This document shows, piece after piece, positions 15,293-59,357 of a stretch of DNA of 64,000 nucleotides. The stretch covers positions 416,001-480,000 of the forward strand of contig CAWJTV010000020.1 in NCBI GenBank assembly GCA_963845755.1, in the 5' to 3' direction. The stretch comes from an uncultured Planctomycetota bacterium (lineage in GTDB: Bacteria > Planctomycetota > Planctomycetia > Isosphaerales > Isosphaeraceae). The notes beneath the pieces were generated by a model. The model was given only the letters and a program-made list of their open reading frames with translations. It searched no databases and had not been told where the DNA came from. Both the position numbers and the translations under genes were made by a program. Within the stretch, counting starts at the first letter, position 1, and every line of letters begins with the position of its first letter.

Positions 15293-15320
15293 AGCCATGG
15301 ATGCCCCGCATGGTTTGGTT

Positions 15321-15352
15321 CTCGTTCCCACGCTTCGCTCCCGCGTGGGTAC
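15321..15352. repeat. REP-like palindrome
   Basis: ctcgttcccacgc...gcgtgggtac hairpin just after a stop codon. Confidence 0.45.
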
Positions 15353-15626
15353 AAGTCGTTCGCAAGTCTTGCCCTTTCTTCTGGTTGACGCGTATTAACT
15401 GGCATTGCCCCTGAATTGGTTTCTCGCGGCCATCTCTGGGGTCGCCCTCGTGTCAACCCTACCGCTGCATCGACAGCCTTCTCGAGAATTCGCCGATTTC
15501 GCGCGAACATCCGGCCGGTACTCGGCGTCTGTCAAGTACCAGACGCGACGGTGACAGCCAGCGTGGCCGAGACCGAGTTGTCGCGATCTGATCGGCCTCA
15601 GCTCTCAGACAGCGAGCGGGACTGCG

Positions 15627-15728
15627 ATGTACGGAGTATGTCAACGGCTTGATCGGGTCATCCGCAAGGCGAAACGTTCCGCCGATCGCTCAGCGAGTCT
15701 CCGCCCGCGCCAAGTCCGACGCTGCTGA
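15627..15728 (+). CDS. putative 33-aa leader peptide of tRNA cluster 1 (MYGVCQRLDRVIRKAKRSADRSASLRPRQVRRC)
   Basis: Purine-rich gagcggga before ATG; same length, similar sequence and same downstream RNA elements as the leader at 34086..34187. Confidence 0.65.
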   Translation: MYGVCQRLDRVIRKAKRSADRSASLRPRQVRRC

Positions 15729-15759
15729 CACCCGGCCTGTCCTCCTTCGACGGAATCTC

Positions 15760-15790
15760 AAGACCCGGTGTCGAAAACACTGGGTCTTTT
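15760..15790 (+). terminator. intrinsic terminator of the putative attenuator before tRNA cluster 1
   Basis: agacccggtgt-cgaaa-acactgggtct 11-bp stem followed by T run; its 5' arm can instead pair with 15727..15738. Confidence 0.75.
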
Positions 15791-15839
15791 CGTTGGACAG
15801 CGACGGAATCTCCGACGCTGCATCGTGCCGACCCTCGAA

Positions 15840-15914
15840 CAGGGCGTGGGAAAGCCTGGTTAATCCGCGAGCTCGGGGAGCTCGAGATCGCCGGTTCAAA
15901 TCCGGCCGCCCTGA
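15840..15914 (+). tRNA. tRNA-Pro (GGG as folded; atypical C33)
   Basis: Acceptor cagggcg/cgccctg, anticodon arm cgagc-tcgggga-gctcg, T arm gccgg-ttcaaat-ccggc; no CCA. Confidence 0.85.
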
Positions 15915-16004
15915 CACTCTGACATACGTAGGATATTCGGCCTCGGGAGGGAGGTGTTGAGATGGATGCGCGAGTCAAACGCATACCCCGGAGAGGCGAT
16001 CGCC

Positions 16005-16076
16005 GGGGTCGTGATGTAAAGGCAGCATATCGGCCTTTTAAGCCGGGAAGTGGGGGTTCGAGTCCCTCCGGCCCCA
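16005..16076 (+). tRNA. tRNA-Lys (TTT)
   Basis: Acceptor ggggtcg/cggcccc, anticodon arm tcggc-cttttaa-gccgg, T loop ttcgagt; no CCA. Confidence 0.9.
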
Positions 16077-16077
16077 A

Positions 16078-16149
16078 TGGCGCCTAGCTCAGCGGCAGAG
16101 CACTCCCCTTATAAGGGAGCGACGAGGGGTTCGAGTCCCCCGGCGCCGA
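16078..16149 (+). tRNA. tRNA-Ile (TAT)
   Basis: Acceptor tggcgcc/ggcgccg, D arm gctc-agcggca-gagc, anticodon arm ctccc-cttataa-gggag, T loop ttcgagt. Confidence 0.88.
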
Positions 16150-16172
16150 CCGTCGAGGCCATCGCATGAGAG

Positions 16173-16243
16173 CGGCCCGTAGCTCAAGGGCAGAGCATCC
16201 GGCCGATAACCGGAAGACGAAGGTTCGACTCCTTCCGGGCCGA
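16173..16243 (+). tRNA. tRNA-Ile (GAT; atypical C33)
   Basis: Acceptor cggcccg/cgggccg, anticodon arm tccgg-ccgataa-ccgga, T arm gaagg-ttcgact-ccttc. Confidence 0.88.
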
Positions 16244-16273
16244 CTCGTGTTGAGTGAGATCTCGCCCCGCGAA

Positions 16274-33593: not shown

Positions 33594-33739
33594 GGGCGAT
33601 CCGGCTGCGCGTGCCATACAGGTCTTTCAGTTCCCCGAGTTCCGCGGCCTGCTCCGGGCCGCTCACCATGAGCCCTGAGGATCAGGGCGGCGACTAAAAC
33701 ATCCCGGCTCATGGGCCCAGATTGGTGATGACCTCTGGT

Positions 33740-33798
33740 GTAGGGTGGGTGCAACCCACCATAACCCCAAGTCGGACGGTGGATTGCACCCACCCTAC
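33740..33798. repeat. GTAG-family REP inverted pair
   Basis: gtagggtgggtgcaacccacc ... ggtggattgcacccaccctac. Confidence 0.75.
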
Positions 33799-34085
33799 AA
33801 ATCTCATGGGCACTAGCAATTACCAATTTCTGCCCATGAGCCACCCACGTAAGACCGCCACAGCGACTCGGGAATGTTGAGTTCTTCGAACACGTTGGCA
33901 TTCCGTATCAGCAATGAGGAGGCTCGACCGACTTCCCGGATCTCACAGAGCCGATGATTCCGCGCGAACATCCCAACAGGCTCTTGCGTCTATCAAGCAA
34001 AGGCTGCGAGGAGACGGCAAGAGCGACAGGCCGGCGCGAGCATCAAGCCGTCGTGATCGGTCAGGACTGGTATGCGAGGAAGGCG

Positions 34086-34187
34086 ATGAACGGCGTGTGT
34101 CAACCGCTCGCGAGCTTGTCCAGACGTGCCGTTCGGTTCGACGGGGATCGGTCGAGTTCCCAGCGGTGGTATGCCCATCGCTGTTGA
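34086..34187 (+). CDS. putative 33-aa leader peptide of tRNA cluster 2 (MNGVCQPLASLSRRAVRFDGDRSSSQRWYAHRC)
   Basis: GAGGAAGG RBS; paralogous to 15627..15728. Confidence 0.65.
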   Translation: MNGVCQPLASLSRRAVRFDGDRSSSQRWYAHRC

Positions 34188-34222
34188 CGCCCGGCCTGCC
34201 TCGATCTGCTTGTGGAAATGGA

Positions 34223-34258
34223 AAGGCCCGGTGTCGAAATCCACCGGGCCTTATCTTT
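34223..34258 (+). terminator. terminator-like hairpin of the putative attenuator before tRNA cluster 2
   Basis: aaggcccggtg-tcgaaatc-caccgggcctt then atcttt; its 5' arm can instead pair with 34186..34197. Confidence 0.7.
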
Positions 34259-34432
34259 GGATGGCGCTGGCGGGCGGGGATGGATCCGTCACGGCCCATC
34301 ACCAAATCCGGGAAACTCGGTAACAAACGCGGACAACGCATGGAGAATGTGCGAATCCGTATAATCGCACCAAATACTTTGATAATTCGAGCTTCGGCTG
34401 GATTCTAAATCCACGGCGAGATAATGCATTAG

Positions 34433-34478
34433 CTCCGTAGCAAGGAGGCGGACCGAGTTCGACTCTCGATGCGGTTCT
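34433..34478 (+). pseudogene. 3' half of a degenerate tRNA (loop reads AGC; identity uncertain)
   Basis: ctcc-gtagcaa-ggag arm and cgag-ttcgact-ctcg T arm, with no D arm or 5' acceptor strand upstream. Confidence 0.5.
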
Positions 34479-34491
34479 TTCGATCAACGAT

Positions 34492-34563
34492 GGGCGGCTG
34501 GTCTAACGGGATGACACTTGGTTTGCACCCAGGAGATCGGGGTTCGATTCCCCGGCCGGTCCA
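34492..34563 (+). tRNA. tRNA-Ala (TGC)
   Basis: Anticodon arm cttgg-tttgcac-ccagg, T arm cgggg-ttcgatt-ccccg, G3:U70-type pair; one extra G in the 3' acceptor strand. Confidence 0.8.
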
Positions 34564-34645
34564 CTCCCTCGCGGGTTCGAGTCATGGTCGGGGTATCAGA
34601 ATTCCTTCGGAATCGTGAGTCCTCGACCGGAAAGCGGAAAGCGCG

Positions 34646-34718
34646 GCCTCGGTGGTGAAATGGACGATCATCCCTCGCTTCTAACGAGGTGTTCCAGGTT
34701 CGAGTCCTGGCCGAGGTA
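34646..34718 (+). tRNA. tRNA-Arg (TCT)
   Basis: Acceptor gcctcgg/ccgaggt, anticodon arm cctcg-cttctaa-cgagg, T arm ccagg-ttcgagt-cctgg. Confidence 0.9.
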
Positions 34719-34742
34719 TGACTGTTGAACGAAGTGGAATGA

Positions 34743-34815
34743 GGACCCGTCGTCTAGCGGCGAAGACGTCCCTTTGACGTGGGGAAGACCGGTGGTTCGA
34801 GTCCACCCGGGACCA
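34743..34815 (+). tRNA. tRNA-Val (GAC)
   Basis: Anticodon arm tccct-ttgacgt-gggga, T arm ggtgg-ttcgagt-ccacc; A.A mismatch at acceptor pair 3. Confidence 0.82.
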
Positions 34816-34944
34816 CTGGTTGGCGAGACCCACTTGATATGGAAGCGCTACACGACTCGGGCGCGAGCGAGCGATGAGCCTTGCAGCTTCGACTTCCGCC
34901 CCTCGCGCTTCGACCCGGGCGAGTCCCGGGCAGGCCTTGATGAT

Positions 34945-35017
34945 GGTGATCGTGGTGTATCGGTCGCATCCGAGACTGTGAATCTCGACGTGCCGGGTTC
35001 AACTCCGGCCGAATACC
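34945..35017 (+). tRNA. tRNA-His (GTG), slightly degenerate
   Basis: G-1 present; anticodon arm cgaga-ctgtgaa-tctcg; acceptor mismatch and irregular T stem. Confidence 0.72.
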
Positions 35018-35035
35018 CTCGCTCAATCGAAAGAC

Positions 35036-35105
35036 AGGGGTGTGCTCCTGGGAGAGCAGCGAGCCTCCAAAACTCGTGCACAAGGTTCGAATCCTTGCAC
35101 TCCTG
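35036..35105 (+). tRNA. tRNA-Trp (CCA)
   Basis: Acceptor aggggtg/cactcct, loop ctccaaa, T arm caagg-ttcgaat-ccttg; compact D arm. Confidence 0.85.
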
Positions 35106-35129
35106 CTGGATGAATCTCCAGGCTCTCGT

Positions 35130-36387
35130 CTAAACTCGGCGCAAGAGCGGCAGTGGAGCGAACCCAGCCCCGAGGACGGATTCCGGAGGACATCCGAGCC
35201 AGTCGGCCAGGAGGCTCGCATAGACCTGGCGGAAGTCGGTGTGAAACTTCAAGTCGCCGTCGTCGAGGTCGTCCAGGCTCGGATGCTTGCCCACCAGGCC
35301 CGGCTTGGCGACCGGGCCGACGAGGAAGACCGGCGCCGCGGCGCCGTGGTCCGTCCCTTGCGAGGCGTTCTCTTGCACCCGGCGCCCGAATTCGCTGAAC
35401 GTCAGGACAACGACGCGGTCGGCCTGGCCGGCCGCGGTCAGGTCGTCATGGAACGCGGCGATCGAATCCGACAGCTCATTGAGCAGCGCCTGGTGGCTGC
35501 CGAGCTGGTTCGCGTGGGTGTCGAACCCGTCGAGCGATGTATAGAAGATCTGAGTACCGAAGTCCGCCTTGATCATCTGAGCGACCAGCTCCAGGCGACG
35601 CGCTAGCCCGAAATTGGGGTACTTGGGACCCGTTCCCGGCTTCGGCGCGAGCTGTTCGAGCCGGCTGCTGGATTCATACGCCGACAACGTCGTGCGGCTG
35701 ATGAAGCCGAGCAACGGGTCGTCCTCGCGACGCTCGACCCGCGCCATCTCCGATCAGCGCGGAGCGCGTCGCTTTCCGGTCAGGCTCGGCGCCGGCAACC
35801 CGGAGCTTGTAGGTCTCGAGGCTCTCCAGCGCCGGGACTTCAGTCTTGCGGCTGCGCAACGCCTGGGGCAAGCTGCGGCCGCCGACGTGCAATGCCGACG
35901 GATCGTCGCCCGGCTTGCGGCCCTTCGCATCGAGGGCCCGTCCCAGCCAGCCGGTCTCCACAGATGCAGGAGCATTGTCCAGCCGGGCGGTCTCCCAGAT
36001 CTCCATCGATCGGAAGTGAGAACGGTCGGGATTGGGGTAACCCACTCCCTGCACGATTCCCAGTCGTCCCTTTTCCAGCAGCTTTGCCATCCCTCCCATC
36101 GCGGGATGCAATCCGATCTCCGGGGTGACCTTATGGACCTGGCCCGGGGACGAGCGCAATGCCCTCCGCCCGCGGTTATAGCCATCGATCCCATGAGGGA
36201 CCACGGTATTCAATCCGTCATTTCCGCCCAGGAGTTGGACGACAACGAGAATTCGGTCTTTGGCTTTTCCGCCCATGGCCGCCTGGGCCGTACGGCCGAG
36301 GAAGCCGGGGATCGTCGTCGCGCCCATCGCGACCAGCGTACTGGTCCCGATCGACTGTTGAAGAAACTGGCGGCGGCTCGAAGGCAT
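35130..36387 (-). CDS. DUF1501 domain protein (frameshift ~35750)
   Basis: SRRQFL Tat motif, GGNDGLNTVVP, RSHFRS; GFDTH, FSEFGRR, GTDHG in ORF 35130..35747. Confidence 0.9.
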
Positions 36388-36411
36388 GGATTCGTCCTCC
36401 CGGTCGGCGGG

Positions 36412-37822
36412 TCAGGTCAGTTGATATTCCGGTAGGGTCAGGATCCGTCGGGCGGCATCGCGGACGGCCGCATCGGCGCCGGCGTCTTTCGACGTCGCGG
36501 CCTTGACGATCGGCTCGCGTACTTTCGGGTCGAGCGGATCGGGGACGAGCAGGTCGAGCAAGAACCGAGCGGCCGCGTCGGGTCAACTCGCACCGTGGCG
36601 AGCGGCCAGCGCCCGCGGGTTGCAACGCCGGCCGACAGCCTGGTCGTCTTCGGAGATGAGTCGCAGGGCCAGGTTGGCGCGGGCGAGCATCGCGGTGGAG
36701 CTGACCCAGGCCGGTCCACCATCCCAGCCGGCGACGCTCGGAGGGGAATAGAGACTCTCACCCATGGCGACGCAGGTCTCGGCAAGGGCCTGCGCCTCGA
36801 CCGTCGGGTTGAGGATCTCCAGGGAGCGGATCGTCCCCACGGCAAATTCGACCGGACTCTTCACCCGCCGACGTCGCACGGCGGCATCGAAGAACAGGCG
36901 CGAGCGCAAGATCCGCGCCACGGGAACCTTGATCTGATAGTTCGACTCGCGAAACGCCTGGGCCAGCGGCGCGAGGAGCCGCTCCGATGGCGACTGGGAG
37001 TCGCTCACAAACTGCCGGAATAGCTTGCGGCAGATCCACTCGGCACACGCGGGTTGTTCCAGCAGGATCCCCGGAATGTCGTCGCCCGTCCATTTCCCGG
37101 TACGGCCCAGGACCTGCTTGACGCCATCGTCATGCTGGCGCGACGACCACCTGGAACTCGTCGCGGATCACGAACCAACCCGTGAACGCCCGGGCGGCTT
37201 CCCGGATGTCCTTCTCCGAATAGTGGCCCCGGCCGAGGCTGAAGAGCTCCATCACTTCCCGGGCGTAGTTCTCGTTGGGCTTGGCCTTGCGGTTGATGGT
37301 CGAATCCAGCCAGATCAGCATGGCCGGATCCTTTCCGATGGCCTGGAGCAAGGCGCGGAAGTCGCCCAGGGCCTGAGCTCGGAACAGGTTGTTCTGCCGC
37401 TGCATCAACGCAGTGCTCGTGACTTTGGCGATCGACGTCGCGAAATGGTTGTGCCAGAACAGGGTCATCCGTTCGCGGAGCGCGTGGGGTGTGAAGATCA
37501 ACCGGTACAGCCAGATGGCCTGGATGCCGGTCAAGTCGGCGGAGGGTCCCAGCTTGGCGGCCATCGCGTCGAGGAAGGATTCGAACTCGGCGGCCGTCGT
37601 GCCATCGCCGGCCTTCGGTTCCCCGACGAGCAGCCGATCGATACTGGCGGAGGGCCCGTCATGCAGGTCTCGCTGAAGGATCGCCCAGGGAGCGGCGAAA
37701 CCGGCCGCACGGTGCAGATGCGAGACGCTCGCCAGGTCCCACGGGTGCGATCGGTCCGGCTCGAACGGCGCCCAGGCACGATCCGGATCGTCCAGCAAAC
37801 TCTTCGGCGATGCGAACCTCAT
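36412..37822 (-). CDS. DUF1800 domain protein (several frameshifts)
   Basis: LRERMTLFWHNHFATS, PNENYAREVMELFSLG, RVKSPVEF, PPSVAGWDGG, terminal PEYQL. Confidence 0.88.
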
Positions 37823-57635: not shown

Positions 57636-59357
57636 ATGAGCGTGAAACTCTCGCGAAAAGCCTACGCCAAGAAGTACGGCCCAACGGTCGGCGACCGCAT
57701 CCGGCTGGCCGACACCGAGCTGATCATCGAGATCGAGCACGACTACACCGACTACGGCGAGGAATCGATCTTCGGCGGCGGAAAGTCGATCCGTGACGGG
57801 CAGGATCAATGCCCGATCGAAGATGTGATGGGTCCCGAACACTGCGACCTGGTCATCACCAACGCCGTGATCATCGACCACTGGGGGATTGTCAAGGGTG
57901 ACATCGGCATTCGAGGCGGCCGCATCGTGGCGGTCGGCAAGTCTGGGAACCCGCTGACGCAATCCGGTGTTGACCCGAGGCTGGTCATCGGGCCGGGCAC
58001 CGAAATCATTGCGGGCGAGGGCAAGATCTGTACGGCGGGTGGCATCGACACCCACATCCACTTCATCTGCCCGCAGCAGATCGAGGTCGCCATCGCCAGC
58101 GGCATTACCACACTGATCGGCGGTGGAACCGGATCGGCGACGGGGACCTGGGCAACAACCTGCACGCCCGGCCCGTGGAACATCATGCGAATGCTCCAGG
58201 CATTCGAAGGGCTGGCGATCAACGTGGGGATCCTCGGCAAGGGCAACGGCAGCGTGCCGAGGCCCCTGTGCAAGCAAATCGAGGCCGGAGCCTGCGGGCT
58301 GAAGCTCCACGAGGACTGGGGCACCACACCCGCCGTGATCGACACCAGCTTGTCAGTGGCCGACGAATACGACATTCAGATCGCCATCCACACCGACACG
58401 CTCAACGAGTCGGGTTTCATCGACGATTCGATCGCGGCGATCAAGGGGCGGGCAATTCACAGCTTCCACACCGAGGGTGCCGGCGGCGGCCATGCCCCGG
58501 ACATCATCAAGATCGCCGGGCTGCCCAACGTGCTCCCCTCGAGCACGAACCCCACTCGCCCGTTCACCGTCAACACGATCGACGAGCATCTCGACATGCT
58601 GATGGTCTGCCATCACCTGTCGCGGGACATTCCCGAGGACGTGGCGTTCGCCGAGAGCCGCATCCGGGCCGAGACCATCGGCGCCGAGGACGTCTTCCAC
58701 GACCGCGGCATCATCAGCATGATGAGCTCGGACTCACAAGCGATGGGCCGTATCGGCGAGGCGATCGTCCGGTGCTGGCAGACGGCCCACAAGATGAAAG
58801 TGCAGCTCGGCCCCCTGGCCGGCGACAGCTCGCGCAACGACAACGAGCGCGTCAAGCGGTACGTCGCCAAATACACGATCAACCCGGCGGTCACGCATGG
58901 CATCGCCCAGCACGTCGGGAGTATCGAGGGCGGCAAACTGGCCGACCTGGTGCTGTACGAGCCGGCGAACTTCGGTGTGAAACCCTTCCTGATCCTCAAG
59001 GGAGGCCTCATCGTCGCCGCCCAGATGGGCGACCCCAACGCCAGCATCGCCACGCCGCAGCCCGTGTACATGCGACCTCAGTTCGCCGCCTACGGCCGGG
59101 CGCTGTCCAAGTCCTGTCTGAGCTTCGTCTCGAAGGTCTCGCTGGACAAGGGGATCGTCGATCGCTACGGCCTCGAGCGCGAGGTCGTGGCCGTCGAGAA
59201 CTGCCGTGACATCGGCAAGAAGGACATGCATCGTAACGAGGCAACTCCTGAGATCCGCGTGGACCCGGACACCTACCAGGTCTGGGTCAACGGCGAGAAG
59301 GTCAGCAGCGAACCGCTCGAGGAGCTGCCGATGTCTCAACTTTACTTCGTATTCTGA
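57636..59357 (+). CDS. ureC: urease alpha subunit
   Basis: [40 protein letters not shown]. Confidence 0.98.

Follow-up and report, generated by a model that had tools for sequence, protein, structure and literature searches.

Two clusters of tRNA genes are located on the plus strand of the window, by which we mean the whole stretch of 64,000 nucleotides analysed in this work. Cluster 1 (15840..16244) encodes Pro(GGG), Lys(UUU), Ile(UAU) and Ile(GAU) and was identified by ARAGORN and by the Rfam tRNA model, at 52-67 bits; cluster 2 (34492..35106), likewise called by ARAGORN and Rfam, encodes Ala(UGC), Arg(UCU), Val(GAC), His(GUG) and Trp(CCA). The genome contains 102 tRNA genes, and 39 of the 45 array tRNAs share their anticodon with a dispersed tRNA at a median identity of only 66%; thus, the array tRNAs constitute a second, diverged set. 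In PMC4758250, a tRNA array unit is defined as at least 20 tRNA genes at a density of at least 2 per kb. By this definition, an array elsewhere in the genome, with 36 tRNA genes in 3.4 kb and supernumerary isodecoders, is an array unit, and the clusters of the window (4 and 5 genes), each taken singly, lie below the gene number of one. The tRNA-Ile with anticodon UAU at 16078-16151 is an unusual bacterial isoacceptor, which in this assembly is present only in the array and is kept in the arrays of relatives. Directly after cluster 2, at 35130-37819 on the minus strand, there are fragments of DUF1501 (partial) and DUF1800 (two pieces), which suggests frameshifts or pseudogenes.

The original prediction for the region preceding cluster 1 comprised a 33-codon ORF, a segment that overlaps its stop codon and is complementary to the 5' arm of a terminator-like hairpin, and the hairpin itself, about 50 nt before the first tRNA. 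Re-reading of the sequence returned each of these elements as described. The ORF (15627..15728, plus strand) runs from the ATG at 15627 to the TGA at 15726-15728 and is preceded, 5 nt before the ATG, by a weak Shine-Dalgarno-like GGGA (15618..15621), the equivalent of which is GAGG or GGAG in most homologues. The predicted antiterminator strand, gacacccggcct at 15727-15738, begins at the G of the stop codon and pairs in antiparallel orientation with agacccggtgtc at 15761-15772 at 10 of 12 positions, the mismatches being C.C and C.A. The terminator-like hairpin with its T-rich tail occupies 15760..15796 and is supported by folding and by family covariation; its stem-loop (15760-15788) has 12 pairs, including one G-U, and the loop CGAAA, and is followed by ttcgttgg, with tRNA-Pro starting at 15840. 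When 15700-15800 was folded, as had been proposed, the hairpin was part of the MFE structure (-38.5 kcal/mol, z = -3.42), and none of 200 shuffles was as good. A smaller hairpin, of six pairs with one C.A mismatch and the loop TCGC, lies within the ORF at 15680..15695 (codons 18-23).

As a single sequence, copy 1 of this leader is not striking in every respect. Its antiterminator duplex, of -14.6 kcal/mol, is at the 9th percentile of upstream windows, which is unremarkable, and in folds of truncated transcripts the antiterminator, at -14.4 kcal/mol, falls short of the terminator, at -18.2 kcal/mol, in stability. Moreover, a simple terminator scan did not call the copy 1 hairpin, because its T tract is interrupted.

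Leader copies, their spread and the promoter motif

A search of the window's own assembly revealed a similar stretch 18 kb downstream of copy 1, ahead of cluster 2. Copies 1 and 2 share the upstream motif, the ATG, the stop-adjacent segment and the hairpin, the last with compensatory changes, and they align without gaps from ATG to TGA, both being exactly 33 codons long and ending in TGA-C. The ORF of copy 2 (L022 in the leader set; 34086..34187, plus strand) has GAGGAAGG in front of it. Its predicted antiterminator strand, gacgcccggcct (34186..34197), forms 11 of 12 pairs with the 5' arm (one G-U, one C.C), and the duplex, of -21.4 kcal/mol, is the best of all upstream windows. The terminator-like hairpin of this copy (34223..34258), with 11 pairs at 34223-34252 and the tail ATCTTTG, scores 81.7 bits with the covariance model R1, which was built from the stop-to-hairpin part of the leader. 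An nhmmer profile of copies 1 and 2 found exactly three copies in the 14.3-Mb genome (E-values of 2.5e-91, 8.7e-89 and 4.4e-12, the next best being 2.3), and R1 returned the same three. Two of them are those of the window and the third is elsewhere in the genome; each is upstream of a tRNA cluster, of 4, 5 and 36 genes, respectively, copy 3 standing directly before the 36-tRNA array.

The surroundings of the copies present some features of their own. The 240 nt between the copy 2 hairpin and the first tRNA of cluster 2 (34253-34491) are AT-richer than their surroundings; a TATAAT hexamer occurs in them, as does GTTCGACTC, which resembles a T arm. Neither tRNA nor Rfam searches gave a call in this interval, which may be a decayed tRNA or a second promoter. 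Just upstream of the copy 1 promoter, 15315-15407 is a repeat, about 90 nt long and itself containing an inverted repeat, that is dispersed in the genome, with at least seven other matches at 75-84% identity. Just upstream of the copy 2 promoter, 33700-33850 holds a palindrome of about 140 nt that resembles a MITE and has inverted repeats nested in it, for which BLAST gave eight further genome matches at 81-88% identity. In a genome of the same genus (G001, L002:1380-1500), the copy 1 orthologue carries a 133-nt AT-rich insertion with terminal inverted repeats, located in the 5' UTR between the promoter and the leader ORF, and the part from ORF to hairpin is intact.

Among the 121 genomes of the family, which is Isosphaeraceae according to the titles of related records, R1 matches 53, which represent 30 of 53 genera and have between one and three copies apiece. 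Outside the family it matches one of 150 other genomes of the phylum, taken as an even sample, again before an array that starts with tRNA-Phe, and the leader found there has a 51-codon ORF ending in ...YPLRT-TGA-C. The element also occurs, with related leaders, in further planctomycete lineages beyond Isosphaeraceae: in the species collection, the pattern of the terminator/tRNA-Phe junction was present at 54 loci, 39 of them with a leader, from Isosphaeraceae, Singulisphaera, Aquisphaera and a second group (Pirellulales, Pirellulaceae, Planctomycetaceae) with a variant promoter. The other 15 loci, in Streptomyces and others, showed no leader. A search of 401 phylum genomes with the pattern TGACRCCNGG-N20-45-GGCCCGGYG matched 44 genomes, against about 27 matches of the reversed control, and looked random.

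This distribution bears on the simplest explanation, namely that an open frame and a hairpin coincide by chance in GC-rich DNA. The window is indeed GC-rich, and spurious ORFs are common in it, 8 kb containing 106 ORFs of 25 aa or more; the 9th percentile of the copy 1 antiterminator would also agree with such a coincidence. However, comparison refutes it, since there are three paralogous copies in the genome and the architecture is conserved in the R1 matches of the 53 family genomes. Copy 1 stands above chance because it is conserved in this way, in two further copies and in dozens of leaders of relatives, and we give coincidence practically no weight.

All copies open with GCGCGAACATC-N13-GCGTCT, which is invariant in 9 of the first 10 copies and is found as an exact match at 15501..15530 in copy 1 and at 33962..33991 in copy 2, both on the plus strand. 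The main text of PMC8103513 gives AAC at -35 and CGT at -10 as the hallmark of ECF-sigma promoters. With AAC and CGT 17 nt apart, the motif of the leaders is, judging from its sequence, a promoter motif of the ECF type. Allowing at most one mismatch, it is present in 83 of the 121 family genomes, as opposed to about 10 matches of a reversed control pattern, and the conserved motif defines a candidate ECF regulon for these arrays. A leader follows in 51 of the 78 distinct motif sites that were inspected; the 27 leaderless sites include some located 39-162 nt before tRNAs and others without any tRNA. Attenuation would thus not be obligatory for these arrays.

In relatives, what follows the motif sites without tRNAs is a fragment of a phage-type integrase, a DtxR-like repressor or unassigned ORFs, and no coherent regulon emerged from them. 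At one locus (L093, in G106) the motif is directly before a DtxR-type gene (iron-dependent repressor and FeoA), and at another (L044, in G062) the same gene follows a single tRNA-Cys; the regulon of this promoter may include this gene as well. The genome of the window also contains a fourth exact motif copy, outside the window itself, at contig C20:720408-720437 on the minus strand (L096); downstream of it there is neither a leader nor a tRNA, and no Rfam match or clear ORF either. Viral contigs gave 13 exact matches to the promoter pattern, none of them with a tRNA or leader, and these were taken as chance. A Pfam search of 28 ORFs near the locus detected no sigma factor and no mobile-element gene, and the genes found were ordinary ones (desaturases, MBOAT/AlgX, MFS, DUF1501/DUF1800). 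In many but not all copies, including that at 15525-15546, the -10-like GCGTCT belongs, as the left arm, to an inverted repeat (GCGTCTG...CAGACGC) that could be an operator or a 5' stem.

Coding features of the leader ORF

The ORF had been predicted to act as a translated leader, and among relatives the ORF itself, its start signals and the position of its stop are conserved; most of its sequence is not. The aligned stop column of 51 leaders contains TGA in 48, TAG in one and GGA in one, the remaining leader being misaligned, and among 66 leaders, 64 end in TGA and 61 have C immediately after the stop. An ATG or GTG in frame, with a Shine-Dalgarno-like site, is found 29-38 codons before the stop in 44 of 49 leaders, at exactly 33 codons in 32 and within 29-38 codons in 12 more, and a start linked to such a site is absent in 5 of the 49. 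When the ATGs that follow GAGG or GGAG are counted in any frame, 29 are in frame and 2 out of frame; the 16S rRNA of this genome has the 3' end ...GATCACCTCCTT, with the canonical anti-Shine-Dalgarno CCUCC. The 87 nt upstream of the stop contain 1, 14 and 27 stop triplets by frame (frame 0 first; 47 sequences), and 1, 11 and 19 when the sequences are taken as 30 groups below 60% identity. The indels point in the same direction, being, among close relatives, of -3 nt and, in the second clade, of -9, -3, +18 and +24 nt, where 18 of 19 leaders are in frame and one is out by +1.

The end of the peptide is the part conserved at the amino-acid level. Arg occupies codon -2 in 55 of 66 leaders and is encoded by six different codons, including AGG and AGA, and Pro occupies codon -4 in 37 of 66, with all four of its codons in use. 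The N-terminal two thirds of the peptide are not conserved, and no codon-position periodicity of variation was detected across most of the ORF (entropy of 1.39, 1.49 and 1.46 by position). Such a pattern is the one expected of a putative regulatory leader, in which the act of translating and the manner of ending would matter. As to sequencing runs, the DNA of the window matches only those of soil metagenomes (best share of words, 0.21), and in four metatranscriptome runs at 88% likeness only the tRNA parts of relatives were covered and 15300-15835 was uncovered.

Conserved C-terminal residues could also belong to an independent small-protein gene ending in its own terminator, with the tRNAs transcribed from separate promoters, and the distances from the hairpin to the tRNAs (50 nt in copy 1, 240 nt in copy 2) would accommodate this arrangement. 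However, in the 20 arrays starting with tRNA-Phe for which the stem was located, the stem ends 7-30 nt before tRNA-Phe; this leaves no room for a separate promoter, so that these arrays can only be transcribed through the hairpin. The lack of conservation in the N-terminal two thirds of the peptide also speaks against a small protein, as does the fact that in this genome the element is found only before tRNA clusters. We therefore regard an independent gene as very improbable.

Alternative structures of the leader RNA

The two structures of the original prediction did not fare alike when covariation was examined, which was strong for the hairpin and weak for the antiterminator. In 47 non-redundant leaders, the hairpin is paired in 90.9% of cells and 7 of its 12 pairs are changed on both sides, a result that none of 500 shuffles reached. 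The T tails are interrupted, and a consensus terminator scan called none at copy 1 or copy 2. For the antiterminator the covariation is weak, with 3 pairs changed on both sides, a number reached in 213 of 500 shuffles; 79.0% of the cells of the same 47 leaders are paired, against 77.8% in the shuffles, which reach this value because both strands are so conserved. Owing to this weakness, the conservation of the antiterminator could have another cause.

The complementarity as such, on which the mutually exclusive structures depend, is conserved: the 79% of paired cells compare with 24-45% when the pairing is slid, so that this part of the original prediction was borne out. The 6-pair core is paired in about 90% of cells family-wide, and 41 of 47 leaders keep the central C.C mismatch. 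In a further test, the pairing of a 16-nt window starting at the stop codon with the 5' arm was compared with that of all upstream windows. In 51 of 65 leaders the stop-codon window ranked within the top 5% (median of -17.4 against -7.9 kcal/mol). When transcripts were cut before the 3' arm, the 5' arm paired with the antiterminator segment in 32 of 47 leaders and elsewhere in the other 15; the median stability was -21.2 kcal/mol for the antiterminator stem-loop and -21.3 kcal/mol for the terminator. One divergent leader has a TAA stop, and in it the pairing is shifted such that the stop is still within it. With the antiterminator strand starting from the second stop-codon base, the geometry fits control by the ribosome.

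Some of these results would be equally compatible with a different role of the hairpin. The ORF might be translated and the hairpin serve the leader RNA as a processing element or stable 3' end that RNase P sets free by cutting at the first tRNA, the promoter alone setting expression. The imperfect T tracts and the lack of a call by the consensus terminator scan agree with this, as does the position of the stem 7-30 nt before tRNA-Phe, where cleavage by RNase P would leave it near the 3' end; in addition, at 27 of the 78 sites no leader intervenes between the shared promoter and the tRNAs or other DNA that it drives. However, a processing element leaves unexplained why the stop abuts the segment complementary to the 5' arm, within the best 5% in 51 of 65 leaders and with the shifted pairing of the TAA leader, and why the length of the ORF is held near 33 codons, and the many homologues with 5-6 T directly after the stem do not favor it either. 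In our view it is the least improbable of the alternatives, and still unlikely.

A trans-acting factor, either a protein or, as in T-box elements, a tRNA, could also stabilize one of the two structures, and the open frame would then be incidental. Conservation at the RNA level is indeed not limited to the two alternative structures. The small hairpin inside the ORF covaries; the RNAalifold consensus of 34 leaders keeps its three inner pairs, one of which is GC in 12, AU in 11 and CG in 3 leaders. Together with the conserved C.C mismatch (41 of 47), which could be a binding feature, this is what such a factor would lead one to expect. However, the scarcity of stops in one frame, the Shine-Dalgarno-linked starts (29 in frame and 2 out), the in-frame indels and the synonymous variation at Arg -2 and Pro -4 favor translation. 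Moreover, Rfam gave no match in 15450-15845 at E-values up to 5 or in 33900-34520 at E-values up to 1, so that even with permissive thresholds neither copy could be assigned to T-box or any other family, and no catalogued leader RNA, again including T-box, reached its gathering score anywhere in the window. A trans-acting factor thus appears quite improbable.

A candidate ribosome-mediated attenuator

The original prediction read the element as a leader-peptide attenuator, and this reading is now supported by the conservation of the ORF, its start and its stop, by the covariation of the hairpin and by the rank of the stop-adjacent segment as a top 5% partner in 51 of 65 leaders. We consider it probable, on the basis of sequence comparison, that the leader is a ribosome-mediated transcription attenuator gating an alternative set of tRNA genes. 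Transcription would start from the conserved promoter of the ECF-sigma type and yield a leader RNA in which a Shine-Dalgarno site precedes the ORF, about 33 codons long. Its stop, nearly always UGA-C, would open a segment that can pair with the loop-proximal half of the hairpin's 5' arm, about 30 nt downstream. A ribosome at the stop codon would cover this segment with its footprint, the terminator would form and the tRNAs would not be made. When ribosomes are absent, slow or stalled upstream, the segment would instead pair with the 5' arm before the 3' arm exists, giving an antiterminator stem-loop that is predicted to be as stable as the terminator, and RNA polymerase would read into the tRNA array. 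Shortage of or damage to tRNAs, as well as drugs that block translation, would act as triggers. Since any ribosome missing from the stop would free the antiterminator, failure of translation in general would induce the spare tRNAs.

Two further features may contribute to this attenuator. The C-terminal Pro-x-Arg-x-UGA-C may prolong the stay of the ribosome at the stop, and the small covarying hairpin within the ORF may pause the polymerase, keeping both machines in step. A more extended reading, which is possible and for the moment tentative, is that a complete, diverged backup set of tRNAs stands behind a general sensor of translation capacity. The C-terminus Pro-x-Arg-x-UGA-C would hold the terminating ribosome on the antiterminator, the spare tRNAs would be switched on whenever ribosomes fail to arrive there in time, be it because anticodon nucleases cleave tRNAs, because tRNAs are short or because antibiotics target the ribosome, and the ECF-sigma promoter would be a second gate. 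Were the ribosome to read such an attenuator, the availability of spare tRNAs would be tied directly to how well ribosomes perform.

The layout of promoter, Shine-Dalgarno-ORF, antiterminator and terminator is that of the amino-acid leaders. In trpL, hisL and pheL, the stop is just before region 2, and a ribosome at the stop prevents the antiterminator. An attenuator of the amino-acid type was nevertheless rejected for the planctomycete leaders, which have no runs of regulatory codons and whose codon content shows no correspondence with the tRNAs that follow. In copy 1, for instance, the leader has 9 Arg, 2 Lys, 1 Ile and 1 Pro codons, and the tRNAs behind it are those for Pro, Lys and Ile. 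Unlike in trp, no alternative of the region 1:2 type is evident, so that absence of translation should give read-through instead of super-attenuation. The conserved UGA stop and the C-terminal residues including Pro also resemble leaders of the TnaC type, in which a ribosome held at the stop would likewise decide downstream transcription, with arrest in the planctomycete leader being conjectural. TnaC-type leaders arrest the ribosome at a UGA stop, with Rho-dependent termination and a need for free tryptophan.

The closest functional parallel that we can draw is with the bmrB leader of Bacillus subtilis bmrCD, described in PMC4191407 as a ribosome-mediated attenuator that senses inhibition of translation. 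According to that paper, bmrB also consists of a small leader ORF, alternative stem-loops and an intrinsic terminator, and whether the leader is translated determines read-through. Both have, in addition, a further level of control at the promoter, AbrB in bmrCD and the ECF-type motif in the planctomycete leader, and in both the signal would be the state of the translation machinery in general and not one amino acid. In contrast to bmrCD as described there, the putative target of the planctomycete leader is tRNA genes and not a protein, and there is no sequence or Rfam relationship between the two leaders. Moreover, whereas a section title of PMC4191407 places the bmrB terminator inside the coding region, in the planctomycete leader the stop codon itself is in the antiterminator; thus, the decisive event would be arrival at the stop.

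Long arrays of supernumerary tRNA genes are spread over many phyla, and one case, in Anabaena, has been studied. The main texts of PMC8421152 and PMC10272220 report that the L-array (trn operon) of Anabaena sp. PCC 7120 is induced by translational stress and controlled through direct repeats at the -10 box and the transcription start, which are bound by the RHH repressor TrcR; the words attenuat*, leader and terminator do not occur in these two main texts. As in Anabaena, the planctomycete arrays are long and supernumerary and duplicate housekeeping anticodons, and in both cases the spare tRNAs are proposed to be turned on when translation is impaired. Planctomycetes are listed in the main text of PMC8421152 among the phyla with L-arrays, which are described there as scattered among species; the planctomycete arrays, in contrast, are common across a family. 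If the proposed attenuator is confirmed, regulation of L-arrays here would be independent of the cyanobacterial TrcR repressor. The original prediction also stated that no leader-peptide attenuator had been described for a tRNA array, and our full-text literature search of main texts likewise turned up none. The planctomycete leader would then be the first leader-peptide attenuator known to control non-coding genes, extending this mechanism from protein-coding operons to tRNA genes. At about 170 nt it is a compact element that is testable in cultured Isosphaeraceae such as Singulisphaera or Aquisphaera.

Elsewhere in the window, a match to the Rfam family 5_ureB_sRNA (97.3 bits) is present at 57787-58089 on the minus strand, antisense to a 573-aa ORF at 57636-59357, which is probably a urease subunit gene.
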